Shown here piece by piece: positions 3,001 through 50,900 of a DNA stretch of 64,000 nucleotides. Below the pieces are notes generated by a model. That model saw only the letters and a list, made by a program, of their open reading frames with translations, was not told the DNA's origin and searched no databases. How positions within the stretch are numbered: the stretch's first letter is position 1; the number at the start of each line of letters is the position of its first letter. This DNA comes from Candidatus Zhuqueibacterota bacterium (GTDB lineage Bacteria; Zhuqueibacterota; Zhuqueibacteria; Oceanimicrobiales; Oceanimicrobiaceae), in NCBI GenBank assembly GCA_029262035.1, contig JAJDAE010000247.1, positions 12,517 to 76,516 of the forward strand, given 5' to 3'. The translations under genes were made by a program, and so were the position numbers.

Positions 3001-3914
3001 TGGCAGCTTATGTTGGCGGCAATGTTTTAATCAATGCCCCAGCTAATGTAGTTGTCTTCCCGCTTGGCGAACCGGTTGGCTCATATGCTGAAAATTTTGA
3101 TACCGGCAGTGAAGCTTTCTTCGTGTTCAGCGGTTTGGATGTTGGCACTCCTGCGGGTTTTGATAATGCAGCAATCCACTCTCCTCATCCATATCCGGAC
3201 GGAGCAAATATGACCGCATTACTTAAAGCACCAATTATAGTCGCTTCAAGTAATGCAACTCTGAAATATGATGATATCGCAATTGTGGAGACCGGCAGCG
3301 GCTCCGGTGTTTTTGGCGATCCGCAATTCTGGGATTTTGCGATTGTTGAAGGCAGTAAGGATAATGGTTCAACCTGGTTGCCACTCGCAGACGGCTATGA
3401 TGCCAGAGCAGATTCTACCTGGTTAGCAGTTCATGATGCTGGAGCTGCCGGCGATTCTTCAATGTATGTATCCCATGAGATTAACCTGTTGGATACTTTT
3501 GCCGCAGATGATGTGATTTTGGTTCGGTTCAGACTTTTTGCCGATACAAACACAAACGGCTGGGGTTGGGCTGTTGACAATATAAATATTCAGGATGGTG
3601 TTGTTTCGGTTGAATCAGGAAGTACGGTACCGACTGTATTCAGCATGTCACAAAATTATCCGAATCCATTTAACCCAACTACGCAAATTAACTACGCTTT
3701 ACCAAAGGACGCTGACGTGACTTTGCAGGTCTTTAATATTGTAGGCCAAAAAGTACGCGACATCTTTGTTGGGCAAGCGCAAAAAACTGGTAGATATACT
3801 ATTGCCTGGAATGGTAGAGACAATAGTGGTATTCAGGTTTCCAGTGGTTTGTATTTTTACAGAATTAAAGCGGGTGACTTTGTGAAGACTCATAAAATGA
3901 CCTTGTTGAAGTAA
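1..3914 (+). CDS. 5'-truncated giant secreted protein with ~10 BNR/Asp-box (SxDxGxTW) repeats and a T9SS C-terminal sorting domain. It is possibly sialidase- or GH74-like, or another beta-propeller glycan-binding protein.
   Basis: Frame 3 is open from nt 3 to the stop at 3914, with no stop upstream of the TTG the ORF track used at 102, so the gene starts outside the window. Repeated motifs TTDSGETW, TDDAGVTW, TTDGGTTW, STDGGQNW, SNDGGATW, STDRGLTW, TTDLGQTW and STDSGGTW are present. The C-terminus NYPNPFNPTTQINYALP...LYFYRIKAGDFVKTHKMTLLK matches the T9SS CTD pattern. Confidence 0.75.
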   Translation, partial: GIRTRIGEISSDYTTNYRVKELLKAHGVKSTSDLALNKSNGTLVWQERGPGNVAGRTRAILVDPADANYGTWIVGSVGGGVWKTTDSGETWAELTIDIPTLATSALAWAPNFPNYIYVGTGEGFGNVDQLDGSGIWKTDDAGVTWAQVASIATNPDFENVMRMAVDPADPMVLVVAVSPGFNQGTGTSGVYRTTDGGTTWTKTYEGGNTFLEDMRADPSDFNNQYATINGVGVIKSTDGGQNWVDSSVGIGPVGRMELAIAPSDPNTIYLSAQGGGTGSILYSSNDGGATWFGHANAVGNDVHWLGGQGWYDNTIAVNPYDASDIFVGGVQLWNITASSAVDTSDAQVTGVDLENTQSFWSFVNFGGPYAGGGLDLTSGFFGSAPIDPSEFASVEVRFGPGKTQKAHRFFRGDGSYPYRDYVDVPFEVWDIDNNQQLMVSFRDHEDNGVFELEDRATDPGGIDREYLFLHNIPYVAVEDTNVAQAGGMLFKGTYSMWPEAPGGTGQPDLTAVPDAIVRINWGTFLTKGIETANVTDGYGQFGGLDKGVHVDHHNIVMVKTDESTSSFRLINGNDGGVSYSDDAGTTFRQTGDQDFRGFGGAETPGLKGYNTTQFYGADKMNGADRYIGGAQDNGQWISDDDPDKTSSWVPAPSGDGFEAVWNYRDPDLMLESSQFNSISRSTDRGLTWQNIGGLIPGNGPFFTRLANSKQDPDLVFAISDAGVIRSDNFGASWTVTPMPAGFVGTSSFSQIVISLANPQIVWTARNMTAASHPFVSTNGGVSFDTTNIFTDVTMGRLSGFDTHPTEENTAFALSALKGAPKVMKTTDLGQTWTDISGFGANAISSTGFPDVAVFSLLVMPSDTSIIWAGTEIGIFESTDSGGTWAFADNGLAAVSVYQMLIVNDEVVVATHGRGIWTVAIPELDGYEPPAVTLAPRFASLNGGGGGIIAASMILPSAYDSSFVLIDGVKTVSLGANSAAVDSSFDIAVSVPQLDTVSVALAAYVGGNVLINAPANVVVFPLGEPVGSYAENFDTGSEAFFVFSGLDVGTPAGFDNAAIHSPHPYPDGANMTALLKAPIIVASSNATLKYDDIAIVETGSGSGVFGDPQFWDFAIVEGSKDNGSTWLPLADGYDARADSTWLAVHDAGAAGDSSMYVSHEINLLDTFAADDVILVRFRLFADTNTNGWGWAVDNINIQDGVVSVESGSTVPTVFSMSQNYPNPFNPTTQINYALPKDADVTLQVFNIVGQKVRDIFVGQAQKTGRYTIAWNGRDNSGIQVSSGLYFYRIKAGDFVKTHKMTLLK

Positions 3915-22721: not shown

Positions 22722-22750
22722 TTGACAAAAAGTTCTTATATACATATATT
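22722..22750 (+). promoter_or_regulatory. sigma70-like promoter candidate upstream of the PorV-like gene
   Basis: TTGACA, a 17-nt spacer, then TATATT, in an AT-rich region ~215 nt upstream of the start at 22966. Confidence 0.3.
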
Positions 22751-22965: not shown

Positions 22966-24039
22966 ATGAAAAAAATAACATCATTGGTTGCGATACTCCT
23001 CATTTTTGTAGTAAGCATCCCGAATTTGTTTGCAGTTAGTGAAGCAGCAGTACTTTTTCTGCTGATTTCACCTCATGCGCGTGTGGGCGGCATGGGAGAG
23101 GCGTTTGTTGCTGTTGCAGATGATGCGTCAGCCGTTTTTTGGAATCCGGCTGGGCTTGCTTTCCAGGAAGGAAGGCAATTCACTAGTATGTACCAACCAC
23201 TTTTGCCGCAGTTTAATCTCGATGATTTGTATTATTTATTTGGGGCCTATCGACAGTCCGTTGAAGGACTCGGTACAGTGGGATTCAACATAACCTTTGC
23301 CAACTACGGCCAACAAATTATTACAGATGAAACCGGCCCTGAGGCGTTAGGTACTTTTAACAGTAATGAGTTTGCGATTACACTTTCCTACGCCACTCTT
23401 TTTTCTCAAAATACCGGCGTTGGTCTGAATGTAAAATTTATTAAAAGTAATTTGTCTGAAGTAGGTGCAGGTATTGAAAAAGGGAATGGCAAGGCCAGCG
23501 CTTTTGCTGTAGACTTGGGACTGTTAAAAAAGAATCTATTTATGGATAATTTAAGTTTTGGAGTGAATATTTCTAATATCGGCCCCAAAATTACTTATAT
23601 TGATAATGCCCAGGCAGATCCTATTCCCACGAATTTTAAGATTGGCTTTGCTTACAAGGCCATTGACCAGGAGTTCAACAGCCTGACTTTTGTGGCTGAT
23701 ATGAACAAGTTGCTAGTGCATCGCACCGCATCTAATCAGATATCGGTTGATGGAGATACAACGTTGGTTAGCGAAGTGGACCCTGTTTTTGAGGCATTTT
23801 TCTCTGCATGGCAGGATGACAATTATATATTCAATCTTGGCACCGAATATTGGTACGCAAATTTAATTGCGTTACGTGCAGGATATTATCATGATCCTGA
23901 TGGGAAAGTAAAATATCTCACTATTGGCGCCGGTCTGAAATATTCGATATATCAATTCGACTTTGGCTATATCTCTGCTGGAGATAACCACCCGCTTTCT
24001 GATACGATGCGTTTTTCGATGACAATCGGTGGTCAATAA
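22966..24039 (+). CDS. outer-membrane beta-barrel protein, probably PorV/PorQ-family (T9SS-associated shuttle/porin)
   Basis: A signal peptide is followed by ARVGGMGEAFVAVADDASAVFWNPAGLA. Amphipathic beta-strands alternate to a C-terminal aromatic-rich end. It sits directly upstream of a T9SS cargo gene. Confidence 0.5.
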   Translation: MKKITSLVAILLIFVVSIPNLFAVSEAAVLFLLISPHARVGGMGEAFVAVADDASAVFWNPAGLAFQEGRQFTSMYQPLLPQFNLDDLYYLFGAYRQSVEGLGTVGFNITFANYGQQIITDETGPEALGTFNSNEFAITLSYATLFSQNTGVGLNVKFIKSNLSEVGAGIEKGNGKASAFAVDLGLLKKNLFMDNLSFGVNISNIGPKITYIDNAQADPIPTNFKIGFAYKAIDQEFNSLTFVADMNKLLVHRTASNQISVDGDTTLVSEVDPVFEAFFSAWQDDNYIFNLGTEYWYANLIALRAGYYHDPDGKVKYLTIGAGLKYSIYQFDFGYISAGDNHPLSDTMRFSMTIGGQ

Positions 24040-24051
24040 ATTTTGTCAAAG

Positions 24052-24114
24052 TTCATTCCGGTTGCTTCGTGCTGAGAGATCTGTAAATCGCAACCGGAAT
24101 GAATTTCACGTTTT
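24052..24114 (+). terminator. strong hairpin terminator
   Basis: A 14-bp perfect inverted repeat TTCATTCCGGTTGC...GCAACCGGAATGAA with a 24-nt loop is followed by TTTCACGTTTT. Confidence 0.6.
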
Positions 24115-24162: not shown

Positions 24163-27100
24163 ATGCAGTATTTTCGATATCTTGTTTTTACTATTGGTTT
24201 ATTTTGCACGCTTCAATCAACGATGGCGCAATCACCCAGGCCCAGATTTTATAAACCACAATTTTCTGATAGCAATTTATTGGGAATTAACAACAATCTG
24301 CTGGAAAAATCTAACTCTGGCTTTACGATTAATACGAATACAATTGGTAGTCCGGATACGCTCAAGCTGCTGGTTATTCGCGTAGATTTTCAAACTGACA
24401 ACAATACGTTAACTACCGGGAATGGTAAATTCCAATTTGCCATTGATACTGAAAAAACGATAGATGTACCACCACATAACCGTCCCTATTTTGAAGCACA
24501 ACTTTTGGCTCTGAGTAATTATTATAAGAAGGTCTCAAGAGGAAATCTTATTCTTGAGGCGGATGTTTTTCCTGCTGCAGATACAGCCGGCTACACAGTT
24601 TTCAATCAAATGAGTTACTATTCGCCGGCAGGTAATGATGAGTTGCTAGACACCCGGCTCGCTGAATTTTTTCAGGAAAGCTTTCAGATAGCAGATTTGG
24701 CGGACAATATCGACTTTTCAAATTACGATAGTTTTATTATTTTTCATGCAGGAGTGGGATCAGATTTCGCCCTGGATTTCGATAGCACACCACAAGATAT
24801 TCCGTCGGTATTTTTAAATTTTAATGAATTGAAGAATGAGTTGGGAAATAGTGAGCCCAACTATGCGGGTATAGCTGTGAATAACGGTTCCTTCCATATT
24901 CGGGATGGCATAATTTTGCCTGAAACTCAAAGCCAGGATCAATTTGAGATTGGCATGCTGGGTACGATGGCTCTTATGTTTGGGAATCAGTTGGGGTTGC
25001 CAATCTTGTTTAACCCGGATAATGGCCGTTCAGGAATAGGCGTTTTTGGATTGATGGATCAAGGCTCCGGGAATTTTTTCGGAATGGTTCCCGCTGAACC
25101 CTGTGCCTGGTCAAAAATTTTTCTTGGCTGGGAAACTCCCATCGTAGTAAAAAACGGAGATGCTCTTCCGGTTGCGACCTCTCTTGCAAAAAATGTAAGC
25201 CAGATTTACAAAATTCCAATCAATGCCAAAGAATATTTTTTAATTGAAAATCGAAGCCGCGATTTTAATGGAGACAACTTTGCAATTGGCTTTGATGCAA
25301 AAGGGACAAAGGTTGAATTTGTGTGGGATGACCGCGGACAAATTCTGCAAGCGCAAGAACAAATTGGCGTGATTACCTCGGTGAGTGAATATGATTTTGG
25401 TTTGCCTGGTTCTGGTATTTTAATATGGCATATCGATGAAAACATAATAGGAGCGAACTTCGCCCAAAATCGCGTCAATGCTGATCCCGGTCATCGCGGG
25501 GTAGATTTAGAAGAGGCAGACGGCGCACAGGATCTCGGTCAATTTTATGGCTTTCTGAGCGCAGGCTTTGGCGCTGAAAACGGTGTAATTGAAGATATGT
25601 TTTGGGGTTCAAATGAAATTAACCTGCTTGTAAATCGTAACTCGGATGCTGTTGTTTTCTCACCTGAGACTCTGCCCAATAGTTCGGCTAATAACGGCTC
25701 GAATTCTTACATTAGAATTTTTGATTTTAGCGAGCCCGATTCTATCATGTCTTTTAGTGTGGAAAATACGATACTTCGGCCAGGCTTTCCACAAATTACA
25801 GCTGAGCCAGGTACAAGCATAAATGCCCCGGTTGCCGCTGATCTAAATAATGACGGGGTATCGGAGATTATATCTACTTCAAGTAATTCTACAGAAATTT
25901 ACGTTTGGAATGCAGACGGTACGAAATTTATACCTAATGATGAAATGTTCAATGTTATTGGTTTAAATGGTGTCACAGAATCCTACGAAAAAGCCCTGTT
26001 TGCAACCCCTCCAGGCGAAAAAATCTTTTCTCCGGCAATTGCAACCAGTGAGTCCGATACAATTGTTGTGGTAACGACAGATCGGTCGGTTGCCTTTTAT
26101 CAGCCTGAGGATGCAGATTCAAATGGAAGAGCAGATGAAATATATGTTTACGAAAGCCAGGTTGAAATTACAACTGCGCCACTCGTTTACAGTAATACCG
26201 GCAGTATATTTGAAGTAGTCTTTGGGAATGCAGATGGGGGAGTTATTCTGATTGACAGCGATAGTGTGGTCACCCCACTAATTGTTGCTCAGGGTGGCGG
26301 TGCCATTTCCGGAATTGCACGAAATATAAATTTTGACTTAGCCTACACAACAATATCTGGAGAAGTTGGTCTAATCGGGCAAAATAGAAGTTTGATTTGG
26401 CAGCGTCAAACTAATTCAAATATTTCTAATTCCCCGGTCATTGCAGATTTGAATCGGGATGGCAATGTTGATTTTATTTTAGTATCAGATTCCGGTGAGC
26501 TTTTCGCGTTTACTCAAAATGGCGATAACTTGGAAGGCCTGCCTACATCTTTTCGTGTTGAGAACCCATCGGCAATCGCTGTGAGTGACATTGATGGAGA
26601 TGGTTTTCTAGATGTTGTTTTTACCGGAGACAATCAGCTTTTTGCATTTAACCACATTGGCTCTTTAAAAAACAATTTTCCTGTACAGATTAGTCGGGCT
26701 GAAGAAGTCGGTTTAGGCGCACCGGTCTTGGTTGATTTAACCTCCGATGGAATTCCTGAAATTGTAACCGGCACCTCAGATAACCGGGTGATTGCTTATT
26801 CTGGCTCCGGTATGATAGTCGACGGTTTCCCGGTTTCTCCTGGTGGCAAAGTCAACAGTGCGCCCTATATAGCCGATCTTGAAGATGATGGAGATGTAGA
26901 AATTGTGGCTATTGCTGAGGATGGCTTTATTTATGTCTGGGATTTTGCAAGTTCGTATAATGCTGATGCTTCTCCGTGGCCTGGTCTGTTTGGCGGCTTA
27001 GGGCACCTCAATTTTAATGATGAGTTTAATCAACCGCAACAGCCCTCAACAAATTCTGTAATGGCTAAAAATTTAGTTTACAATTACCCAAATCCAACTG

Positions 27101-27339
27101 AGGGGAATCAAACCACCATTCGCTACAGATTGAATGAAGCCGCTGACGTTAATATTAAAATATATGATTTGGCCGGCGATTTTGTTGATGAGCTAACCGG
27201 ACCGGGTTTTCCCCAAGCAGACAATGAGGTCACCTGGTCTCTGACCAATATTCAAAGCGGCGTTTATCTTGCGCGGGTGGAAGCAAAGGGTGCAAGCAAT
27301 TCTGATGTTAAAGTTATTAAAATTGCAGTTGTAAAATAG
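24163..27339 (+). CDS. 1058-aa T9SS cargo protein with an N-terminal M6 (immune inhibitor A)-like domain whose HExxH is degenerate, FG-GAP/VCBS beta-propeller repeats and a T9SS CTD
   Basis: The signal peptide is present. GTMALMFGNQLGLP aligns with M6 GTFAHEYGHNLGLP (H>L, E>M, H>N). FG-GAP-like repeats include DLNNDGVSEII, DLNRDGNVDFIL, DIDGDGFLDVVF, DLTSDGIPEIVTG and DLEDDGDVEIVA. The C-terminus is NYPNPTEGNQTTIRYRLNE...VKVIKIAVVK. Confidence 0.6.
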   Translation: MQYFRYLVFTIGLFCTLQSTMAQSPRPRFYKPQFSDSNLLGINNNLLEKSNSGFTINTNTIGSPDTLKLLVIRVDFQTDNNTLTTGNGKFQFAIDTEKTIDVPPHNRPYFEAQLLALSNYYKKVSRGNLILEADVFPAADTAGYTVFNQMSYYSPAGNDELLDTRLAEFFQESFQIADLADNIDFSNYDSFIIFHAGVGSDFALDFDSTPQDIPSVFLNFNELKNELGNSEPNYAGIAVNNGSFHIRDGIILPETQSQDQFEIGMLGTMALMFGNQLGLPILFNPDNGRSGIGVFGLMDQGSGNFFGMVPAEPCAWSKIFLGWETPIVVKNGDALPVATSLAKNVSQIYKIPINAKEYFLIENRSRDFNGDNFAIGFDAKGTKVEFVWDDRGQILQAQEQIGVITSVSEYDFGLPGSGILIWHIDENIIGANFAQNRVNADPGHRGVDLEEADGAQDLGQFYGFLSAGFGAENGVIEDMFWGSNEINLLVNRNSDAVVFSPETLPNSSANNGSNSYIRIFDFSEPDSIMSFSVENTILRPGFPQITAEPGTSINAPVAADLNNDGVSEIISTSSNSTEIYVWNADGTKFIPNDEMFNVIGLNGVTESYEKALFATPPGEKIFSPAIATSESDTIVVVTTDRSVAFYQPEDADSNGRADEIYVYESQVEITTAPLVYSNTGSIFEVVFGNADGGVILIDSDSVVTPLIVAQGGGAISGIARNINFDLAYTTISGEVGLIGQNRSLIWQRQTNSNISNSPVIADLNRDGNVDFILVSDSGELFAFTQNGDNLEGLPTSFRVENPSAIAVSDIDGDGFLDVVFTGDNQLFAFNHIGSLKNNFPVQISRAEEVGLGAPVLVDLTSDGIPEIVTGTSDNRVIAYSGSGMIVDGFPVSPGGKVNSAPYIADLEDDGDVEIVAIAEDGFIYVWDFASSYNADASPWPGLFGGLGHLNFNDEFNQPQQPSTNSVMAKNLVYNYPNPTEGNQTTIRYRLNEAADVNIKIYDLAGDFVDELTGPGFPQADNEVTWSLTNIQSGVYLARVEAKGASNSDVKVIKIAVVK

Positions 27340-27407: not shown

Positions 27408-30400
27408 ATGAGAATGGAAAATTTTTTAAGTAAGAAAAAATATCTCCAGGTTTTATTCATAATATTATTTTTGTCTGGTAATTTATTGGGTCAGTTTGGC
27501 CCCGATGCTTATAATCATCCGGAGCTCGATTGGTACACCATTGAGACAGAACACTTTTTTGTCCATTTTCACAAAGGCACTGACCGTACAGCCAAAGTTA
27601 TTGCAAAAATAGCAGAGGATATTTATACACCGGTCACCTCACTTTATGAATATGAAGCAGATTCAAAAATTCATTTTATTATCAAGGATTATGAAGACTA
27701 TTCCAATGGTGCGGCTTTCTACTATGATAATAAAATAGAAATTTGGGCATCTGCTATGGATTTTGAATTGCGGGGTTCCCACAATTGGCTACGCAACGTT
27801 ATTACCCATGAATTTACCCACATGATTCAGATTGGCGCCTCCAGAAAAATTACGCGCCATGTTCCTGCAGTCTATTTCCAGGCCATTGCTTATGAAACCG
27901 AAAGGCGAGAGGATGTAATTCGTGGAGCGCCGAATACAGTTGTGTCTTATCCAATTGCGATGACGGTTATGCCAAGTTGGTACGCTGAGGGTGTCGCACA
28001 ATTTCAAATTACCGGTTTAGATTATGAAGATTGGGATGCTCACCGCGATATGATCCTGCGTACCTCGGTGCTTGAGGATAAGGTGCTGACTTATACGCAG
28101 ATGGGTGGTTTTGGAAAAAATAGCATTGGCAATGAAAAGGTCTATAATCACGGTTATGCCTTTGTTGGCTACCTTGTTAAGAATTTTGGTTTGAAATCGC
28201 TTCAACAAATTTCAAAGGAAATGAAAGGCTTTCACCGGGTAACCATCGATGGTGCCATGGAAAAAGTGACAGGTAAGAGTGCTTCCACACTTTATAACGA
28301 TTGGATTGAGGAAATAACAGCTCAGTACAAGTCTCAATTGCGGGATATTACTGAGAATCGGGTTGAAGGTGAAATTATCGAGAAAAAGGGTATTGGTAAT
28401 TTTAACCCGACCTGGGGGCCAGATGATATCAGTTTGGTTTATCTGTCTAGTTTTGAACATAATCGTCTTTCCAGTACCGGATTTAAAGCTGTGGGGCCTC
28501 TTGTTAAAAACAACAAGAAGAAAAAACTATGGGTAAGTCATGATCTTGACTGGTCGCCGGATGGAAAGAGATTGGCTTATGCTCACAAAGACAAGCAAAC
28601 CAAAAGCGGTTCAAGATTTTTTGATATTTATATATATGATCTTCAGAGAGAAAAAGAAGAACGAATCACTCGTGGACTCAGGGCGCACAGTCCAACCTGG
28701 TCGCCGGATGCTCAGGAGCTGATTTTTATCGTGAATAATGATGGTACAGAAAACCTTGTTCGTATTGAGCTGGAGACAAAAAAATTAACCTATCTCACTG
28801 ACTTTAAATATGGTGAGCAAATTGCTCATCCTGATTGGTCGCCGGATGGACAGCAGGTTTTATACTCTACTTTTATAAACAGTGGTCAGGATTTATTTCT
28901 TTTAGATCTGGAAACCAACAAGACAAAACCCTTACTTGCTGATGAGTACGATTCTCGCGATGGCGTTTATAGTCCTGATGGAAAAAAAGTCTATTTTAGC
29001 TGGGATAAAACCGGTATTTTCAATATTTATGAAATGGATTTGGAAACCAAAGGAATTGACCAGTTAACAAATGTTGTAGGCGGGGCTTTTATGCCCTCGG
29101 TAAACCGGAAAGGCGAGTTGCTTTTTTCAACATTTACAGCCGATGGGTACAAAATTGCAAAGCTGGAAAATCCCAAACCGATCAATCCGGAAAAAGCGAA
29201 TTATGCTATTTATGCAAATGAAACACAACTTGCATCTGCTGATAACAGTTTTTCTCCTTCTGCCATAGAAAAAATTAAAGCGCCGTATTATGACGATACT
29301 AAATTTTCTAATTATGAGGTAAGTCCTTATAAAACAAAGTACTCCGATATTGCTTTTATGCCACGAGTTATGGTGGATTACGGCACCCTAAAGCTCGGCA
29401 CGTATGCTTATTCTTATGAGGTACTGGAAAAATTTGGATTTCTGGCTGGCTTTGATTTGAATTCGAGATTGGATTATGACTTGTTTGCTTTGGTAGAATA
29501 CAAGAAGTTCAGCCCGACCATTTTTGCTGAGTTTTATAATCAGGTTCAAAATATTAAATTTGATGTAGATTCTACAGAACAAATTGTGAGGGGCATATTC
29601 AACTTGAATAATCCCCAGGATAAGTTTAAATATAATTTAATGGAAATTAACATCGGGCTGGATCAGAAAATTATTAATCGCTACCATACGCTTCGAGCGT
29701 CCTTTATTCATAGTCGTTATGCGACTTCGGTAAAATTTCAAGCCCCGGTTGGAGAACAAACGTTTAAGTACAAATATTTTTTGGGATACGATTTATCGTT
29801 AAAATATACGTACGATACGTTTGGCTTTAGTCGGTTTTTTGAAATAGACCCCAAAGGTCGATTTTTTGAGTTCCGCTACGAGAGAGAGTTTAATAAATTT
29901 TTGGTTGACTTTGCTACGGAGCGAGTTGTAAGTGCTGAAATTTTTGAGAACTACAATTATAACAAATTGACATTGAATTATAAGGAAAATATACCATTCT
30001 TTTTTAAAGGTCATACATTGAATTTGGATGTAAATGGTGGATTTATTGATACAAAGGTTGACAGCTTTTTTAATTTCTTTGCCGGCGGTATTATAGGTAA
30101 TAGGGGATACCCGTATTACAGCATTGAGGGGAGAAAAATGCTACAAGGCAAACTGACCTACCGGTTCCCATTATTTAATAAACTCGATATGCGTTTTATG
30201 CATCTCTACTTTGATAAAGTCTATCTCAGCGCATTTTATGATTACGGCAATGCATTTGATGAAGACAAAATTGATTTTGGCGATTTCAAGTCAAGCGTTG
30301 GCGGCGAGCTTAGGATGGATTCGTTTTCGTTTTATTCATTTCCAACAAAACTTTTTTTTAGTGCCGCCTATGGATTAGATCGGTTTGAATTTGCTGATCA

Positions 30401-30458
30401 GGTTTATGGCAAGGATTGGCGTTTTTATTTTGGTGTTTCTTTTGGTTACCTTGAATAG
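27408..30458 (+). CDS. 1016-aa outer-membrane multidomain protein (paralog A): MA-clan (M1-like) metallopeptidase domain, TolB/PD40 beta-propeller, C-terminal Omp85/D15-like beta-barrel
   Basis: Signal peptide. ITHEFTHMIQ (HExxH) is followed by WYAEGVAQF (compare M1 WLNEGFA). PD40 repeats are WSPDGKRLAY, WSPDAQELIF, WSPDGQQVLY and YSPDGKKVYF. The Y/F-rich C-terminal 400 aa carry GNRGYPYYSIEGRKMLQGKLTYRFPLF (Omp85 L6-like RGY...E.RFP) and an alternating aromatic C-terminus. Confidence 0.6.
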   Translation: MRMENFLSKKKYLQVLFIILFLSGNLLGQFGPDAYNHPELDWYTIETEHFFVHFHKGTDRTAKVIAKIAEDIYTPVTSLYEYEADSKIHFIIKDYEDYSNGAAFYYDNKIEIWASAMDFELRGSHNWLRNVITHEFTHMIQIGASRKITRHVPAVYFQAIAYETERREDVIRGAPNTVVSYPIAMTVMPSWYAEGVAQFQITGLDYEDWDAHRDMILRTSVLEDKVLTYTQMGGFGKNSIGNEKVYNHGYAFVGYLVKNFGLKSLQQISKEMKGFHRVTIDGAMEKVTGKSASTLYNDWIEEITAQYKSQLRDITENRVEGEIIEKKGIGNFNPTWGPDDISLVYLSSFEHNRLSSTGFKAVGPLVKNNKKKKLWVSHDLDWSPDGKRLAYAHKDKQTKSGSRFFDIYIYDLQREKEERITRGLRAHSPTWSPDAQELIFIVNNDGTENLVRIELETKKLTYLTDFKYGEQIAHPDWSPDGQQVLYSTFINSGQDLFLLDLETNKTKPLLADEYDSRDGVYSPDGKKVYFSWDKTGIFNIYEMDLETKGIDQLTNVVGGAFMPSVNRKGELLFSTFTADGYKIAKLENPKPINPEKANYAIYANETQLASADNSFSPSAIEKIKAPYYDDTKFSNYEVSPYKTKYSDIAFMPRVMVDYGTLKLGTYAYSYEVLEKFGFLAGFDLNSRLDYDLFALVEYKKFSPTIFAEFYNQVQNIKFDVDSTEQIVRGIFNLNNPQDKFKYNLMEINIGLDQKIINRYHTLRASFIHSRYATSVKFQAPVGEQTFKYKYFLGYDLSLKYTYDTFGFSRFFEIDPKGRFFEFRYEREFNKFLVDFATERVVSAEIFENYNYNKLTLNYKENIPFFFKGHTLNLDVNGGFIDTKVDSFFNFFAGGIIGNRGYPYYSIEGRKMLQGKLTYRFPLFNKLDMRFMHLYFDKVYLSAFYDYGNAFDEDKIDFGDFKSSVGGELRMDSFSFYSFPTKLFFSAAYGLDRFEFADQVYGKDWRFYFGVSFGYLE

Positions 30459-30470
30459 ATAAATAGGTTT

Positions 30471-31343
30471 ATGATGAAAGTAGTAGTTTTCTGTTTGTTA
30501 TTAGTTTTTGTGTTTGGGTTCGGAAATGTCACGGCTAAGGAAAAAACTAACAGCGAATTAAATGCTTTGGTAACAGCGCGTTCGGAATTTAAAGTTCGTT
30601 TAAAACAAAGTATTGAAACAACCCCCAATATTTCACTGTTTACTCAGGGAGAAACTGCAGGAGGTAAATCGGTTAAAAAGAGTGTGCTATTTTCTGCTAT
30701 TGTGCCGGGTGCCGGGCAAATTTATGCTAATTCCTACATCAAAGGTTTCTTGTTTCTAGGCGTTGAAATTGCTGCAATCGCATTAAATTTAAATTATGAT
30801 AAGAAGGCAAATGATTTTGAGGATGAATTCGAAGGGGTCGCAAATGCACAATGGGATGAAAATTCCTATTGGGACTGGATTGCACAAATAAGCAGTTTAG
30901 ATAGAAGCAATAAATCTGCTCTACGTGACTATGAACGTCGTACCTTTAGCCACTTCTTACCTAATATTATAAATCAACAATATTATGAGAATGTTGGAAA
31001 GTATAACCAATTTATTTATGGCTGGAATGATTTCAGAGACCAGCTGGGGTCCAGGATATTTACTCTTGAGGATTATCTAAATAAAGCATTTGACTCCGAG
31101 AGCTTGGATACTATTTCTCCAACGAGAGTGGGGTATGTGCAAATCCGTAAAGAGTCCAATGATAACTTTAAGAAAGCCACCACGATGACAACAATTATTA
31201 TGTTTAATCATATTTTAAGTGCCATTGACGCCGGGCTAACCACTAAATTCCATAATCGTAAATTCACAGCCGAGCTGAACATGCAAGGCAAGCTCTACAA
31301 CGAAGAACTGGTGCCGGTCTTGGCTTTAGGAGTGCTTTGGTAA
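30471..31343 (+). CDS. secreted/membrane-associated protein, DUF5683-like (paralog 1 of a tandem pair)
   Basis: Signal peptide. Motifs LFSAIVPGAGQIYANSY and MFNHILSAIDAGL are shared with the next gene. It is 13 nt downstream of paralog A. Confidence 0.35.
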   Translation: MMKVVVFCLLLVFVFGFGNVTAKEKTNSELNALVTARSEFKVRLKQSIETTPNISLFTQGETAGGKSVKKSVLFSAIVPGAGQIYANSYIKGFLFLGVEIAAIALNLNYDKKANDFEDEFEGVANAQWDENSYWDWIAQISSLDRSNKSALRDYERRTFSHFLPNIINQQYYENVGKYNQFIYGWNDFRDQLGSRIFTLEDYLNKAFDSESLDTISPTRVGYVQIRKESNDNFKKATTMTTIIMFNHILSAIDAGLTTKFHNRKFTAELNMQGKLYNEELVPVLALGVLW

Positions 31344-32135
31344 ATGATTAGATTTGAAAATTATAACATCCCTATTTCTTTGATGGTTTTGTTAGTACTG
31401 CTATCTTTAAATGCGTTGCATGCTCAACCGCTATTGAGAGGTGGCTCTGACAAGTTAAAAATAAAACAAGAAATAATTCACGCAGCCGTGAGCCGCTACA
31501 ACTCAATTGAAGAAAATACAATGGCTGGTCAGACTTTTCAGGATAGACCCGTATTAAAATCAAGAGGAAGAGCATTTTTGCAGTCGTTGCTTTTGCCCGG
31601 ATGGGGTCAACATTACGCCAATTCTAAACGAACTATGCGGTTTTTTATTTTAACGGAAGTACTTACCGTCGGTAGTTATGTTGGTTTCAGAACCTGGGGT
31701 AATTGGCTGGAAGATGATTATCGTGCATTTGCGGTTACCCATGCCGGTGTAGATTTAAAAGGAAAAAAGGATGATTATTTTGTCGATATCGGAAATTTTG
31801 ATAACATTGCGGACTATAACCAGGCGCAACTACGCGATCGGGACTTAATTGATGTTTATCGAAATACTGAAGCATTCCATTGGCAATGGGACAATAGCCA
31901 AAATCGTGATAAGTTTGAAGATTTACGTATTCGAAGTGATCGCGCCTCCAACAACTCGGAATTTGCATTAGCCGCAATCTTTTTAAATCATCTGGTTAGT
32001 GCGATCCATTCCACTCTTTCAGTTTACAAATACAATAAAAAGTTAAGTGAAAATGAAACAGGCTTTAATTTGAACTTTAAGTATGATCATAGAAGCCAGC
32101 TACTGGCTCTCAACATTTCAAAGACATTGCAATAA
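31344..32135 (+). CDS. secreted/membrane-associated protein, DUF5683-like (paralog 2)
   Basis: Signal peptide. Motifs LLLPGWGQHYANS and FLNHLVSAIHSTL. It is adjacent (1-nt gap) to paralog 1. Confidence 0.35.
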   Translation: MIRFENYNIPISLMVLLVLLSLNALHAQPLLRGGSDKLKIKQEIIHAAVSRYNSIEENTMAGQTFQDRPVLKSRGRAFLQSLLLPGWGQHYANSKRTMRFFILTEVLTVGSYVGFRTWGNWLEDDYRAFAVTHAGVDLKGKKDDYFVDIGNFDNIADYNQAQLRDRDLIDVYRNTEAFHWQWDNSQNRDKFEDLRIRSDRASNNSEFALAAIFLNHLVSAIHSTLSVYKYNKKLSENETGFNLNFKYDHRSQLLALNISKTLQ

Positions 32136-37100: not shown

Positions 37101-37467
37101 ATAAGCACCCGTTGTGAGTTTAAATAAATTTTCCAGTCAGAGGAATTTTCTTCAAAAAAAATGTATTTAATATAAGTAGTGAAACATTAAATGATTCAAA
37201 AAATGCACTGATAATTGAGCCATATCAAAATTGTGCTATAATATCTATCGGAAAATTACAACCAAAAATTAACTTGATAGAGGTGCATATTTTGTTAAAT
37301 TGTAGCAAAGAATTTGGAAGATATTTTGTTATGGACGATAACCCTTTTCGAAGTGACCTTCTTGAGAAAATGTATTTCTGCCCTATTTCATCTTAAGTTT
37401 TTATGGATTTAATAATTCAATTTTGTCTCACCAAAGACAGTTATCCACCAACCAAAAGAGTTGTAGT

Positions 37468-40443
37468 ATGATAAATATAAAGCTTGTCCGAAATAGCATT
37501 ATTCTTGTTTGTATTTTATGTATTTCGTCTGGGGCTTTTTCGCAATACTATTTTGGAAGAAACAAAATCCAGTACGATGATTTTCGCTGGAATATTTTAA
37601 AGACTGAGCATTATGACGTTTATTTTTATCCGGAGATGCGGGAACTTGCGGAAATAGGGGCAGCCATGGCCGAGGATGCGTATACGCGCCTGGAAAGCAA
37701 GTTGAACCACAACATCACACGCAGAATTCCTCTGATTTTTTATTCAAACCATATTCATTTCCAGCAGACAAATACAATTCCTAATTTTATTTCGGAAGGT
37801 GTTGGCGGTTTTTTTGAATTTATAAAGGGTAGAGTGGTGATTCCCTCTACTGGTTCAATTCATGATTTCAAGCACGTTATTAATCACGAGATGGTACATG
37901 TTTTCACGCGTAGTAAATTAGGCAGGGGATATAAAGATCGCCGGAGAACCCTCTTTGCCGGCGCTCCTTTATGGTTTACTGAAGGCATCGCAGAATACTG
38001 GTCGGAAGGCTGGGATTCTCAAGCAGAAATGTTTATTCGCGATGCAATGTTAAGTGGGTATCTTGTGCCGGTTAGCCAGATGGACAGAATTTATGGTACC
38101 TTTTTAATGTATAAAGAGGGGCAGGCAATCTGTCGGTTTATTGCTGAAAATTTTGGTGAGGAGAAGTTGCTGCTGCTGCTGGAAAATGCCTGGAAAGCTG
38201 AACGTTTTTCGGAAGTGATGAAGCTGACAATTGGCCTTAACTACAAAGAATTTGATAAAAAGTGGATTTATGATTTAAAGAAGAAAATTTATCCTTTGCT
38301 TGATGAAGGAGATGAACCCTACCAGGTAACCAAAGAGTTTACCCAGGCTGGGTTTAATACCAAGCCGGCATATTTCAAAAAGGATGGGGAAGACTGGGTA
38401 GCATTTACAGCAAATCGTATGGGCTATTCGAATATTTACATCAAACCTCTCGGCGTTAAAACTAAATCTCCCGAAGTTTTAGTTAAGGGGGAGCGCACTC
38501 CGGATTATGAATCCTTTTATTTGCTGAAAAGTAAGCTCGATGTTAATGATTCAGGAAAGCTTACGTTTATATCGAAAAGCGGTGCCAGAGATGCACTTTA
38601 TGTTTATGATATTTCAACCAGGGAAAATACCCGCAAATTTGATTTTCCCGATTTAGTTTCTTTGTCGTCGCCACATTGGTCACCCGATGAAAAGGTGATT
38701 GTTTTTTCCGGGAAGAGCTTTGCGGGACAACCCGATTTGTATACCTTGACAGTTGAAACCGGTGACCTGCAACGATTGACAAATGATTTTTATGATGATA
38801 AAGACCCTGAATGGTCGCCGGATGGTAAAACCATTGCCTTCAGTTCCGATCGGTCTTATTATGGTAAAGAAGGTGTCAAAAACTTGTTTTTGTACGAAGT
38901 GCTGACGGGACAGATACGCCATATTACCTGCGGACCCTACAACGATTTTTCACCCACATGGTCTCCCGATGGTCAAAATATTGTTTTTTCTTCTGATAGA
39001 GATGGCACTTTCAATCTATGGATGCTAAAAAATAATACGTTTAATTTTGAGCCGTTTGATGATAACAGCCTGGTTGTCGCCTCACTGGATAACGGTGATA
39101 TTCAACCTGACTACACAAAAAATGATGGGCAATTAGATAGTTTTGATTCGGTCGACGGAGTCTTGAAAAATTTGTACCCCTCAGCAATTGAGCCAGCCGA
39201 TGAAATAAAAAAGATAACCAATTTTACAACCGGTGCCCAGGATGCTGAATGGGTTGATAACAACAGATTGATTTTTTCAGCCTTTCAGGGATTCAGTTTT
39301 CAAATTCGGGAATTGAATGATATTCAAAAGAAATTTGCCGAGGCAGACACGGTCGTTCACGATGTGGTTACAGGAACGAACGATATTTGGGTTCCCAATA
39401 AAATTGTCGGCCAGGTAGATGCTACCCAGATAAAGTACAAAAAGAAATTCAATCTGGATATCGCCCAAAGTGCAATTGCACATGATCCGGTTTACGGTTC
39501 GACCGGTGGCGCCCAACTCGCTATGAGCGATATGCTTGGTAACCAGAAGTACTTTTTCCTTCTGTACAATAATGCTCAAAGGAGCAGTGAGTTTTTTAAA
39601 AGCTGGAATTTTGCGGTCACTCGGGTGGATCTAGGTCGCCGTGTAAATACAGCCGTTGGGTTGTTTAGAATTTCAGGCCGCTTTTTCGATCGGGTCGATA
39701 GTTTCTTTGACCAGGAAAGAGTCGGTGGGTTCGTTTCTGCCAGCTATCCTTTCTCAGTTTTTAACAGAATAGAAGGCAGTATCAGTTTACGAAAAGAACG
39801 TCGGGAGTATCTTAACAGAAGCATAAACGGTATCATCGCTTCTAATTCAATCTCTTATGTTAAAGATAATACGCTTTGGGGTGTTACCGGTCCGGTTGAT
39901 GGTGAACGATACAATGTTACAGTTGGTCATACACTCGATATTCAAAATAACGATGTTAGTTTTTTTACCTTTACAACCGATTACCGAAAATATTTTCGCT
40001 TAAGCCGGCGCACAACTTACGCCACGCGTGTAATGGGGAGATTTAATGTTGGCAAAGAATCTTTCCGCTATTTTATGGGTGGTAGCTGGGATTTGAGGTT
40101 GTATCCGCGATGGCGTATTTGGGGACGGAAATTATTTCTTCTAAATAATGAAGTGAGATTCCCTTTGCTGGATAGATTGATTCTGGGTTTTCCTTTTGGC
40201 GGTTTGGGTTTTGGCGGGTTTCAGGGAGCCGCTTTTGTAGATCTCGGTCAGGCTTGGGATAGTGAGTATCATTTCGAAGAGGTGTTGGGAAGCATGGGGC
40301 TTGGCATTCGTATGCGGTTTGGTGGGTTCCTGGTTTTAAGGTATGAAATTGGCCGTACTTTTCAAGTTAATGATTTAAGCAATCCTTCTATTCATTGGGA
40401 TAGCGGACTAAAAAAAGCATTTTGGTTTGGGCTTGACTTTTAA
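37468..40443 (+). CDS. ~990-aa outer-membrane multidomain protein (paralog B): MA-clan metallopeptidase domain, PD40 beta-propeller, Omp85/D15-like C-terminal beta-barrel
   Basis: Preferred start MINIKLVRNS... at 37468, with a signal peptide. The ORF track starts at 37423. VINHEMVHVF (HExxH) is followed by WFTEGIAEYW. PD40 repeats are WSPDEKVIVF, WSPDGKTIAF and WSPDGQNIVF. The C-terminal region has FMGGSWDLRLYPRWRIWGRKLFLLNNEVRFPLLD and the beta-signal-like end AFWFGLDF. Confidence 0.6.
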   Translation: MINIKLVRNSIILVCILCISSGAFSQYYFGRNKIQYDDFRWNILKTEHYDVYFYPEMRELAEIGAAMAEDAYTRLESKLNHNITRRIPLIFYSNHIHFQQTNTIPNFISEGVGGFFEFIKGRVVIPSTGSIHDFKHVINHEMVHVFTRSKLGRGYKDRRRTLFAGAPLWFTEGIAEYWSEGWDSQAEMFIRDAMLSGYLVPVSQMDRIYGTFLMYKEGQAICRFIAENFGEEKLLLLLENAWKAERFSEVMKLTIGLNYKEFDKKWIYDLKKKIYPLLDEGDEPYQVTKEFTQAGFNTKPAYFKKDGEDWVAFTANRMGYSNIYIKPLGVKTKSPEVLVKGERTPDYESFYLLKSKLDVNDSGKLTFISKSGARDALYVYDISTRENTRKFDFPDLVSLSSPHWSPDEKVIVFSGKSFAGQPDLYTLTVETGDLQRLTNDFYDDKDPEWSPDGKTIAFSSDRSYYGKEGVKNLFLYEVLTGQIRHITCGPYNDFSPTWSPDGQNIVFSSDRDGTFNLWMLKNNTFNFEPFDDNSLVVASLDNGDIQPDYTKNDGQLDSFDSVDGVLKNLYPSAIEPADEIKKITNFTTGAQDAEWVDNNRLIFSAFQGFSFQIRELNDIQKKFAEADTVVHDVVTGTNDIWVPNKIVGQVDATQIKYKKKFNLDIAQSAIAHDPVYGSTGGAQLAMSDMLGNQKYFFLLYNNAQRSSEFFKSWNFAVTRVDLGRRVNTAVGLFRISGRFFDRVDSFFDQERVGGFVSASYPFSVFNRIEGSISLRKERREYLNRSINGIIASNSISYVKDNTLWGVTGPVDGERYNVTVGHTLDIQNNDVSFFTFTTDYRKYFRLSRRTTYATRVMGRFNVGKESFRYFMGGSWDLRLYPRWRIWGRKLFLLNNEVRFPLLDRLILGFPFGGLGFGGFQGAAFVDLGQAWDSEYHFEEVLGSMGLGIRMRFGGFLVLRYEIGRTFQVNDLSNPSIHWDSGLKKAFWFGLDF

Positions 40444-40450
40444 GTATCTC

Positions 40451-41614
40451 ATGACAGAAAAAATTAAATATATCTTCATTTTGCTGTTTTGTTTTCTTGC
40501 GTTTTTCTCCTGTAAGAAAACATTAAAAGTGGATCCAATTTATCTTACAGAAATTAGTGATGAAGATTGGCCGCTTTATGGTAACTCACCTGAAAGAAGT
40601 AATTACAGTGCGACTTCACTTAGCCCGCCTCTTAAAAATTTGTGGACATACAAGGCATCCTCTGCAATAAGCCCCGTATTAGTAGCGGCAAATGGTATCG
40701 TTTATGCTAATACGCTAGATGGTCGTCTCGATGCGATCGATATCAAAACCGGTAATCGCATTGGCCAAATTAAAACCAATGAAAGTATTGAAACGTCAAG
40801 TGCTTTTTTTGATGGAGATCTGTTTATTGTTTCCAGATTTGGTACTGAAACTTTGGCACGTATGGATCTTGAAACAGCCCGGTTTTTGTGGCGAACCAGT
40901 GCTGGAGATATTGCCACAGAACCACTAGTCGATAACTCGGGTGTTTATGTATCAGCAATTTATCGGCATATTGATAAATACGATTTAGAAACCGGTGACC
41001 AGCTATGGAGCTATAAAACCGAAGACCAATTGCATTCGTCGCCGGCACTTTCTGAAAAAACTGTTGTTGTGGGCAGCGATGATGGAACCATTTATGCCTT
41101 AAACACCCAGGACGGTACTTTAAACTGGAAAATGGATACAGACGGGGCGATATTTTCAACACCAATTATTTACGACGGGCAAATTTTTGTTGGTTCTCTG
41201 GATAGTACCTTCTATGCTATCAATTTAAATGATGGTACACTTAGTTGGAAATATAAAACGAACTATCCAATATTTCAAACCGCTGCAATTAGTCAAGGAG
41301 GAGATGTATTTTTTGGCGATAGTAACGGATCATTCTATAGCCTGAGACAAGATTCAGGAAAACTGAATTGGACATTTAGCGCATACAGCAGCATAAGCAC
41401 CTCCCCTTTGGTGGCAGGTGAGATTGTTTATTTCGGTTCCTTGGATCAGAAATTTTATGCTTTATCTGCAAATGATGGAAAAGAACTATGGAATTTCACC
41501 GCCCAGGGAAGAATTCGGACAGCGCTTGTGATTTGGAAAGATTATTTGATTGGGGCATCTGAGGATAAATACATTTTTTGTTTTAAACCTGAAAAAGAGA
41601 TGGTTATTAAGTGA
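40451..41614 (+). CDS. PQQ-repeat beta-propeller lipoprotein, BamB-like
   Basis: Lipoprotein signal ...FLAFFSC. There are repeated PQQ-type blades: GTIYALNTQDGTLNWK, TFYAINLNDGTLSWKY, SFYSLRQDSGKLNWTF and KFYALSANDGKELWNF. Its start overlaps the end of paralog B. Confidence 0.6.
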   Translation: MTEKIKYIFILLFCFLAFFSCKKTLKVDPIYLTEISDEDWPLYGNSPERSNYSATSLSPPLKNLWTYKASSAISPVLVAANGIVYANTLDGRLDAIDIKTGNRIGQIKTNESIETSSAFFDGDLFIVSRFGTETLARMDLETARFLWRTSAGDIATEPLVDNSGVYVSAIYRHIDKYDLETGDQLWSYKTEDQLHSSPALSEKTVVVGSDDGTIYALNTQDGTLNWKMDTDGAIFSTPIIYDGQIFVGSLDSTFYAINLNDGTLSWKYKTNYPIFQTAAISQGGDVFFGDSNGSFYSLRQDSGKLNWTFSAYSSISTSPLVAGEIVYFGSLDQKFYALSANDGKELWNFTAQGRIRTALVIWKDYLIGASEDKYIFCFKPEKEMVIK

Positions 41615-47968: not shown

Positions 47969-50900
47969 GTGATGCGATATTTAAAACTACATTTTATATT
48001 TATTTTTTGTTTGGGTGCTGTTTCTCTCGCGAATGCCCAAACACCTCCCAAGTTAGTTGATATAAACTTAGTACTGAACAACAATTCCAATCCACCAACT
48101 GTGGGTTTAAATGAAGATGTGAAAATCGAACTGATTTTTGATTCTGCCATGGATCCCACAGTAACGCCGGGCATTCAATTTGGATTGAGTGAATCAAATT
48201 TATTAGATCTTAATTTCAGCAATACTGTGTGGAGTGGCCAGGTCTGGCAGGGCACATTTACTGTGACAAAAAATTTGCCTTCAACTCCCGACGGAGAATA
48301 TATATTTGAGATATTTGGCGCCAGAAATACAATAGGCATTGAAATGGGTACCACCAGCAGTTTGGGAATTGGTGCTCAAGATAGCACACTTTTTATTTGC
48401 CGGTCAGGTAGTCTTGAGCTTGATACCAGCTCACTAAGTTTTGATACTTTGGCATTTGGAAAAGATCAGGTTCTCTCATTTACTGTTTCAAATGTAAGCT
48501 GTGAAATACTAAGAGTAAATTCAATCATAGTGCCAAGCCCGTTTGTTTTATTCCAAAGCCCTGGGCAATTTCAATTGCCTTCAGGTACTAATATTTCGGT
48601 TTCAATAAAATATGAACCACTTTCTAGAACGAAACATACCGGAACCATAATTATTAACAGCGACGATATTTACCAGAACGCTCATTTCCTTGAAGTTACC
48701 GGTGCCGCAGCAGGGCCTCAAATTAGAGTTGTTCCTGATTTTCCCTTGGAATTTGGAACACTGGAAATTGGTGAGGATAGCACCCAGTCAATTTATGTCA
48801 TTAATGAGAAAGCGCCACAACCGGCCTTTAGCGCTCCGCTTGAGGTAAATAATATTTTGATTAATACAGATGCTTATAAGGTTGATACGACTCAGTTTGT
48901 AGTACAACCGGGTGACTCTCAAGAAATTAAAATTACCTTCGCGCCTATAGCACGCGGTCTGTTTAACAACTCGTTGCAGATAAGCAATAATGATTTGCAA
49001 AGCCAAGTGGCAGTAGTTTTTCTGAAGGGCAGAGGGGGCGATGATTCAATTCCTCAAAAACCGGTAAACCTGGCTATAAAATACGGTACGTTCGAGCGAT
49101 TTGTGAATGAGCCTGAGTTTGAAGTCTGCTGGGAAAATCCTGAAGACCCTGTTGGAATTACTGAGCTTTGGTGGAAGTTCTCGCAAGAAAGAAATCCACC
49201 GGTGAGCGCAACGGATACGACGCAATCGGGTGGTAGGTTTATTTTTGGTGATGAAACTTGTGCTACTTTGCAGCTCGCCGGCAATGTTACACCGGGACTT
49301 TGGCGTATTTATTTTTGGCTCGTGGATGCAGAACAAAATTCAGGCTATGAAAATTACACGACCCGCGTTGTTTATTATGACCCGACAGCACCCGTTGCGC
49401 CGCCTGTTATTGGCCGTTCCATACCTGGAGAACAATGGTTTGGGTCCGGCGATGACTTTGAAATAACTATCCAAATTCCAGGCGATCCTGTAACCGGCCA
49501 TAAAGATGCAAACCAGGTTCGCTGGAAATATAAAACTGAACCAGGTTTTAGCCGCGACTTTAATGACAGATATTTTTTTAATGAAGGTGATGGCGCTGAA
49601 GTGACTTTTTCTGTTCCGTTTAATTTGACTTCATTATGCGGTGAAGATAATTTATACATTTGGCTTGCCGATTCAGCCGGAAATGTAGACTTTCAAGCCA
49701 CAACAGCAGTACCCTATCGATTTGATATTTGTTCCGGCTTTGTCACTGATTTTGAAGTAACCTGGCCCAATTTTAGTGGGCATACAAACCAGAATACGCT
49801 TCCAATATGTTGGACGCCGGCACCAGGTGCAGAGGAAATTAGTGAAATCTGGTGGAAGTACACACAAACGCCCACACCGCCGCAAAATAATAGTGATACA
49901 ACAGCAATCGGTGGTAGAATTGTTCTTGATGAAAGTGTTTCATGCGTCAATCTTCCTTTGACGGGAAGCATTAGTTCAGGGCAATGGTACGCTTACGTTT
50001 GGGCGGTGCTTGCAAATGGTAGTCGGGCAAGTTTCGCCGACCCGATTTCTGTAAATTTTATTTACGATTTGAAGCCACCCGCTGCCCCGCAAATTTCGAG
50101 CAACACGATTCCGGATACGGCATGGATAGCCAACGCAGATACGTTTGAAATTACAGTAACTCTGCCTGTTGAGCCGGATAAAACAACCAGCGATGTATCC
50201 GAGCTGCGGTGGAAGTTCAAATCGCCCCCGGTAACAGATGATGATTACGTGAGTAGGCACATTTTTAACGGTGGTTCAACACTTTTGCGAACAGCACCCA
50301 TTCCTTTTGATTCGCCTGAGTTTTGTGGGGATGATTTGCTATACATCTGGTTTGCCGACTCTGCCGGAAATTCAAGCTTGAGTAATATAACCGGGGTTAG
50401 ATATCGATTTGATATTTGTTCGCCTGAGATAACACCCGTAATTGCAAAATCCAATCAGATTGTTCTTTTAGGTGAAGCATTTAGTGATACGGTAATTGTG
50501 GGAGATATTGCAGGTCTTGATTCGGTTTGGGCCGAATACCGTATAGGCGGTTCGTCAAATAGCAGTCAACTCTTGCTAACCGAAATTCCGGGTACCGACC
50601 GGTTTACATTTGAAATATCGCCAGACCTGTTAGGTAAACGTGGCTTAGAGTATCGCATTTTGGCTAAAGATGCCCGCGGGAATGTTGGCTCTGGCCCTCT
50701 TGTGGGTAATAGCTGCAGTTCAGGAGATATCTGGATTTCAGTACAAACACGTATCGAGGGAGATGGCGATTTTCGTGTGGATAGCGATGGCTTGCCGGTA
50801 CCACTGCTGGCCGGCGACGAGCAGTCATTCTATCAATTATTTTCCGTGCCTTATGAAGTCGAACAAAATGATATTCTCTCTGTTTTCCAGGATGACCTTG

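Follow-up and report, generated by a model that had tools for sequence, protein, structure and literature searches.

Metallopeptidases of the immune inhibitor A (InhA) and PrtV type (MEROPS M6; PF05547; 4yu5, 4yu6) come from Bacillus or Vibrio. The metzincin consensus combines HExxHxxG/NxxH/D, a motif that binds zinc, and a Met-turn (PMC12237041). In the T9SS (type IX secretion system) of Porphyromonas, PorU and PorZ are surface proteins that carry a C-terminal sorting domain (CTD) and are held by the barrels PorV and PorQ, with PorZ being a non-enzymatic propeller protein that works with PorU and whose CTD remains uncleaved (PMC8545088). The gene analyzed here, located within 64,000 nucleotides of DNA from a Candidatus Zhuqueibacterota bacterium (GCA_029262035.1, contig JAJDAE010000247.1, positions 12,517 to 76,516; this whole stretch is hereafter the window), is related to both settings: it encodes a protein that combines an M6-fold domain, in which the metal site is lost, with a T9SS type A CTD, and it lies directly downstream of a porV orthologue. 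The gene and its product are referred to below as M6-like.

The M6-like gene is an intact open reading frame (ORF) at 24163..27339 on the + strand, encoding 1058 amino acids plus a stop. In a scan of NCBIfam, its product matched the model "T9SS-dependent M6-like inactivated metalloprotease" (NF052323, T9SSA_dep_M6i) with 658.6 bits against an equivalog cutoff of 600 (E 1.7e-197). The protein is a member of this family, which NCBI has already catalogued, and no feature sets it apart. Because the model already describes a dead M6-like T9SS protein, the reading given by a first-pass annotation of the sequence alone, namely a T9SS protein with an M6 (InhA)-like domain and a degenerate active site, amounts to a correct rediscovery. 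What the present analysis adds to the catalogued family is a quantified gene neighborhood, porU-porV-M6i-(Omp85-fused peptidase)-DUF5683.

The protein has the layout of T9SS type A cargo, with a Sec signal peptide, recognized by reading the sequence, and a C-terminal type A CTD that scores above the model cutoffs. The signal peptide (24163..24228, +; ~aa 1-22, MQYFRYLVFTIGLFCTLQSTMA) has a hydrophobic core, after which comes a cleavage-type site, TMA/Q, and residues 2-19 are helical in the AlphaFold2 model, for which the mean predicted local distance difference test score is 88.7 and the predicted template modeling score is 0.86. It is followed by the M6/InhA-fold catalytic-like domain (24352..25152, +; ~aa 64-330), a β-rich middle domain (25153..25782, +; ~aa 331-540) in which the motifs GSGILIWHID and RGVDLEEADGxQD are invariant, a fast-evolving 8-bladed FG-GAP β-propeller (25783..27027, +; ~aa 541-955), and the CTD (27085..27336, +; aa 975-1058), which matches TIGR04183 with 36.9 bits (cutoff 23) and PF18962 with 36.3 bits (cutoff 27). 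Four stretches of the propeller are recognized by Pfam FG-GAP_3 (PF13517; 61.5 bits, cutoff 26.9); the propeller contains four D-x-x-x-D-G loops and one further match resembling a calcium loop (DADSNGRADE), and its neighbors in structure comparisons of the model are 8-bladed propellers. The signal peptide, the FG-GAP blades and the sorting domain named in the first-pass annotation are thus all present. The exact protein sequence was absent from a collection of 15 billion proteins, in which the top identity was at most 68%, although a protein encoded nearby (P0121) was found there at 100%; the source record may lack a call for the M6-like gene, place its start elsewhere, or carry a flag on it.

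The N-terminal domain resembles M6 peptidases far more closely than chance would allow. The curated M6 domain model TIGR03296 matched residues 113-366 at E 2.4e-16, with 60.5 bits falling short of the cutoff (110.8 bits), whereas the Pfam scan of the protein gave no match to Peptidase_M6 (PF05547) itself. Among the homologues of the N-terminal domain, PF05547 was matched at E ≤ 0.001 in 7/22, and eight homologues scanned singly scored 24.8-36.4 bits (gathering score, 22), the matches covering the segment from the active-site helix to the Met-turn. All 22 of the N-terminal homologues tested matched both NF052323 and TIGR03296 (best E 1.3e-25). When a profile of the N-terminal domain alone, built from the 22 sequences, was run against the PDB, a single sequence was found at E ≤ 10, namely InhA (4yu5/4yu6; E 0.0045). 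By comparison, a single-sequence phmmer search of the PDB with the whole protein returned nothing even at E ≤ 10, and the full-length profile matched CTDs and propellers alone and did not reach InhA.

The alignment with InhA defines the fate of the active site. HMMER placed the family consensus that starts with 'gllgilalnlG' and ends with 'GlmDqGs' on the InhA active-site block ending in 'SLMSGGS', and the HAGvG strand of the family on the InhA sequence 'VIHAGVGQE'. The printed InhA chain reads HAFGH, presumably an E-to-A crystallization mutant. The corresponding segment of the M6-like protein, GTMALMFGNQLGLPILFNPDNGRSGIGVFGLMDQGS, begins at residue 267, and the degenerate zinc motif GTMALMFGNQLGLPILFN (24961..25014, +; aa 267-284) is the counterpart of HExxHxxGxxD. 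The first-pass annotation had seen HExxH replaced by LMxxN, with both zinc-binding histidines and the catalytic glutamate lost; the profile alignment yields the same register and extends the loss to the third ligand, with the first His replaced by L271, the catalytic Glu by M272, the second His by N275, and the third-ligand Asp by I281. The motif glycine (G278) is kept, as is the methionine of the Met-turn (M298), GLM298D being aligned with InhA SLMSGG. There is no HExxH or HxxEH anywhere in the 1058-residue protein, which contains only 7 histidines in total, and no active M6 paralogue was found in the 64-kb window. The metzincin scaffold, that is, the active-site helix, glycine turn, Met-turn and HAGxG strand, is kept; as far as M6 membership is concerned, the catalytic-domain fold and the Met-turn are present, the zinc-binding consensus is missing, and the scores stay below the curated cutoffs of the hidden Markov models. 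With both zinc histidines, the catalytic glutamate and the third-ligand aspartate replaced, the domain would be unable to bind a catalytic zinc or to activate water, and most likely binds a ligand rather than cleaving one. Apart from these replacements, the M6-like protein differs from InhA and PrtV in that its C-terminal half consists of the FG-GAP propeller and the T9SS CTD instead of the C-terminal domains of those proteins, and in its origin from Gram-negative phyla of the Fibrobacterota-Chlorobiota-Bacteroidota (FCB) group.

The loss of the active site is a property of the family rather than of this particular protein. Searches for homologues identified more than 1,100 relatives, from metagenome-assembled genomes (MAGs) of KSB1, Calditrichota, Marinimicrobia and similar lineages. 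Among the 120 homologues listed, E is absent from the column of the catalytic glutamate, which holds M, N, L or Q instead, the first His is retained in only 3, and none contains the complete HExxH..D motif. When 1.84 billion cluster representatives were searched exhaustively, 786 matches at E ≤ 1e-30 were obtained, and from these an alignment of 134 sequences was assembled (the query and 133 representatives from clustering at 50% identity). Again, the glutamate column never contains E (L37, M33, Q22, N20, S16) and the complete HExxH..D motif is absent from all 134 sequences. The four ex-catalytic positions display at least 40 different residue combinations. Other positions are nearly fixed, including M298 (132/134), H195 (133/133), H423 (132/134) and D425 (129/134), and W422, H423, D425, E451, G454, D457 and G459 form invariant columns of the middle domain. 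The CTD was found in 127/127 full-length representatives. Median identity to the query is 45% for the dead protease domain, 48% for the CTD and 20% for the propeller; conservation is thus highest in the dead protease domain and in the CTD and lowest in the FG-GAP propeller. Given that the catalytic residues are lost throughout the homologues surveyed, inactivation is old and universal in the clade, and the scaffold is under purifying selection. Within the family, a sub-clade represented by eight proteins with the motif 'AHQFGH' keeps both zinc histidines, with the catalytic Glu changed to Gln and the third-ligand Asp lost. Judging from these residues, this sub-clade looks like an intermediate stage of inactivation, in which metal binding might still be possible.

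The second line of evidence comes from the genomic context. The gene immediately upstream (22966..24039, +) encodes an outer-membrane barrel of the PorV/PorQ family, in agreement with the first-pass annotation: the product scores 291.9 bits with the PorV_fam model NF033709 (cutoff 90) and 235 bits with the PorV equivalog NF033710, just below the cutoff of 250, with far lower scores for PorQ and PorV2. It is 45% identical over the full length to its counterpart in one of the homologous loci (L080), which exceeds the PorV cutoff (277.5 bits) and adjoins a bona fide PorU, and on these grounds the upstream gene is identified as a porV orthologue. A scan of species-representative genomes showed that relatives of the M6-like protein are encoded by at least 584 assemblies, which are exclusively MAGs or single-amplified genomes (SAGs) of FCB-group phyla. 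We retrieved 80 loci, which derive from 80 different assemblies and thus suggest one copy per genome, and searched their ORFs with profiles of the neighboring proteins; the counts refer to the loci with enough DNA for the respective comparison. The porV gene is located directly upstream of the M6-like gene in 69/69 loci. A PorU-core profile located porU directly upstream of porV in 23/57 loci; with porU just before porV on the same strand, there are 27 such loci in all, so that porU and the M6-like gene flank porV in each of them. These 27 loci include LCP-89 MAGs, a KSB1 SAG and two complete chromosomes, and the identity of PorU is supported by NF033707 scores of 631-991 bits (cutoff 420) together with the Peptidase_C25 domain and a CTD. 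In one locus (L075), the conserved unit is reduced to porU-porV-M6i, followed by unrelated genes. On three long contigs of distant lineages, porV, the M6-like gene, a gene for a ~1000-aa Peptidase_MA_2/PD40 protein and a DUF5683 gene follow one another in this order within unrelated flanks. Linkage to porV or porQ and to porU, one of the features considered for surface components of the T9SS attachment complex of the PorU/PorZ type, is observed for the M6-like gene. The presence of both PorU and the M6-like protein in the same loci also led us to reject the latter as a replacement of PorU in these phyla.

The reading that we favor, with a probability of roughly 0.55, is that the M6-like protein is a T9SS-exported dead M6-fold protein acting as a constitutive surface partner of the PorV shuttle/PorU sortase stage of T9SS in those FCB-group phyla that lie outside the well-studied Bacteroidia. 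The signal peptide would carry the protein through the inner membrane, and the type A CTD would carry it through the outer membrane via T9SS. At the surface it could be tethered through its own CTD, as are PorU and PorZ, with the dead cleft as a possible binding site for cargo polypeptide and the propeller as one for a glycan or protein on the surface. Synteny across phyla, the origin of each retrieved locus from a different assembly, and the constraint on the ex-catalytic and sorting domains together form the pattern to be expected of a fixed machinery partner.

Comparison with the two Porphyromonas proteins qualifies the analogy. PorZ (5m11) likewise has a CTD and a propeller, is non-enzymatic, and is linked to a barrel of the PorV/PorQ family. 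PorZ appears among the Foldseek matches of the M6-like protein at rank 50, and its CTD is among the PDB sequence matches. However, PorZ has two 7-bladed propellers and lacks a protease-like domain, homology between the two proteins does not extend beyond the CTD and a generic propeller fold, and the PorZ model NF052228 matches the M6-like protein with 19.1 bits, on the CTD alone. A PorZ-like role is put forward here as a hypothesis, by analogy. PorU (6za2) is, like the M6-like protein, a large CTD protein encoded beside porV, and among PDB sequences the CTD of the M6-like protein is best matched by that of PorU (E 2.6e-5), but PorU is an active cysteine peptidase whose C25 sortase fold is unrelated to that of the M6-like protein.

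Several observations weigh against a partnership with PorV and PorU. Outside the CTD, the M6-like protein shares no homology with PorU or PorZ, and even its CTD is only weakly closer to the PorU CTD than to other CTDs. The PorU-core profile detected no PorU within the 64-kb window, and in the nearest relatives of the window locus PorU is not adjacent. Literature searches on T9SS, pseudoproteases, FCB phyla and DUF5683 found no paper or experiment on the NF052323 family. Gene linkage alone is not proof of physical interaction. Finally, the 124-nt spacer between porV and the M6-like gene contains a strong hairpin, which separates the two genes, so that they may not be strictly co-transcribed.

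The hairpin (24049..24106, +) consists of a perfect 14-bp inverted repeat that extends to a 17-bp stem; it folds with −29.4 kcal/mol (z −4.95), and 0/200 shuffles were as stable. The loop is ~22 nt long, which is why the hairpin was missed by a consensus terminator scanner, and the T-tract downstream is interrupted (CACGTTTT). The structure may be terminator- or attenuator-like rather than canonical. Thus, the strong terminator proposed in the first-pass annotation holds as regards the stem and not as regards the loop and the T-tract. The promoter-like elements proposed along with it were not recovered: a consensus scan detected no promoter-like site in the spacer, and across the region such sites were not enriched (29 versus 30.7 in shuffles), the best σ70-like site lying upstream of porV at 22722-22750.

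A more specific version of the favored reading goes further and is offered tentatively. The M6-like protein might be an unrecognized core component of T9SS attachment and sorting outside Bacteroidia, namely in KSB1, Calditrichota, Marinimicrobia, LCP-89, Zixibacteria and Ignavibacteria-like lineages. It would sit on PorV by means of an uncleaved CTD and work with PorU as an adaptor for cargo, CTDs or glycans, analogous to PorZ but with its evolutionary origin in another scaffold. Two kinds of proteins encoded downstream (see below), the DUF5683 proteins and the HExxH peptidase fused to Omp85, could then be further, lineage-specific parts.

The first of the alternatives is that the protein is ordinary T9SS cargo, either a non-catalytic adhesin, with the FG-GAP propeller as the adhesive part, or a decoy, in which case the adjacency of porV would reflect co-expression only. 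This corresponds to the function suggested in the first-pass annotation, "non-catalytic surface adhesin or decoy", of which the non-catalytic M6 scaffold is upheld by the data, whereas the adhesin or decoy role fits them less well. A variable adhesin or decoy would be expected to be patchy in distribution and multi-copy, with its binding surface under constraint, and the observed pattern is not that expected of one: the 80 loci belong to 80 different assemblies, the gene directly follows porV without exception across phyla (69/69), and the supposedly adhesive propeller is the least conserved part of the protein, the dead protease domain being the most conserved one. For a decoy, there is also no obvious target, since the lineages are, judging by the names of the MAGs, free-living and environmental. 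We consider this explanation rather unlikely; based on gene linkage and analogy, a conserved, PorV-linked, non-catalytic binding component would fit better.

The second alternative concerns the genes downstream. Separated by only 69 nt from the M6-like gene, the next gene (27408..30458, +) encodes a conserved partner of 1016 aa. A T-H-E-F-x-H motif is invariant in 39 diverse homologues of this protein, Peptidase_MA_2 and PD40 are recognized in 39/39 of them and Pfam Omp85 in 4, and its profile matches TolB with E 1.6e-34 and, to a weak degree, the TamA barrel. Taken together, these domain and profile matches identify the protein as an Omp85-type barrel whose N-terminal part comprises an apparently active HExxH peptidase domain of the MA clan and a TolB-like propeller. 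The MA/PD40 gene follows the M6-like gene in 47/51 loci. In 12 loci the two genes lie farther apart, at 430-2000 nt, and in certain lineages this gap might accommodate an additional small gene or regulatory sequence. The next cassette member is a DUF5683 protein (30471..31343, +; PF18935, 33 bits, cutoff 26.7), likewise encoded downstream in 47/51 loci. In tandem with it stands a gene for a second DUF5683-like protein (31344..32135, +), which scores below the cutoff (PF18935, 20.8 bits), has orthologues in many loci and belongs to the cassette in numerous lineages. A search of the literature on DUF5683 found nothing relevant to function. The cassette ends with this gene, as marked by the ribose-5-phosphate isomerase gene that comes next; overall, it is flanked in the window by accB/accC/gcvH and rpiA.

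It is a recurrent pattern that pseudo-enzymes are paired with active ones, and the M6-like protein could dock onto, regulate or present substrate to the Omp85-fused HExxH peptidase. With the DUF5683 proteins as further members, the two would make up a module for proteolysis or quality control in the envelope, located beside porV by chance. The co-location of a peptidase with an invariant HExxH in 47/51 loci, the similar frequency of DUF5683 and the tight spacing in the window all speak for such a partnership. However, four loci keep porV-M6i (in L043 and L075, porU-porV-M6i) without the downstream genes, so that the linkage to porV is tighter, and the protease domains belong to different families, M6-like and Peptidase_MA_2. 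Furthermore, the N-terminal domains of Omp85 proteins are periplasmic, whereas export takes a CTD protein to the surface, and hence the two may sit on opposite sides of the outer membrane. We consider such a partnership unlikely. The last alternative, in which enzymatic activity persists in the M6-like protein through a catalytic or metal site relocated to H195, E254, H423, D425, E451 and D457, draws on the 92-100% conservation of these residues in the 134 representatives, beyond the need of the fold alone, but is quite improbable, considering that H195 lies in the HAGVG strand also found in active InhA and is thus inherited scaffold, that calcium sites typically have D/E-rich motifs of the VDLEEADG kind, and that the NCBI curators named the family 'inactivated'. 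A sub-profile of the invariant 'LIWHID...VDLEEADG' region of the middle domain, before which the Pfam Peptidase_M6 model stops, matched no sequence in the PDB.

The window contains additional genes with bearing on secretion and the envelope. Besides the M6-like protein, T9SS type A CTD proteins are encoded at 102-3914, 47969-52111 and 58545-61061 (+); one contains an F510_1955-family glycosylhydrolase-like region, another a choice-of-anchor D domain, and in the third no other domain was recognized. Evidently, going by these predicted proteins, the organism relies on T9SS for several large secreted proteins. No gldK-N/porK-N, sprA/sov or porU gene was detected among the window ORFs scanned, with ~10 ORFs of at least 150 aa lying outside the scans. 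A distant paralogue of the Omp85-fused peptidase (24% identity, E 2e-28) is encoded at 37423-40443 (+) and has the motif HEMVH, a TolB-like propeller and an Omp85_fam match; it is directly followed by a gene for a BamB-like PQQ-propeller protein (40427-41614, +). The GC skew is positive in 31/32 2-kb bins, with a cumulative value of 2.92 at 60-62 kb and 2.91 at the end, and the large ORFs are mostly on the + strand. Skew and ORF orientation are consistent with a single leading-strand segment of a replichore.

Current knowledge of T9SS comes nearly entirely from Bacteroidia. The M6-like gene is fixed beside porV, and often porU, in hundreds of species of several poorly studied phyla. If the protein is indeed a partner of the PorV/PorU stage, it would show how attachment and sorting are organized elsewhere and would represent another case of a pseudo-protease recruited into a secretion machine; if true, its assignment to the secretion machinery would be of real interest to T9SS specialists.

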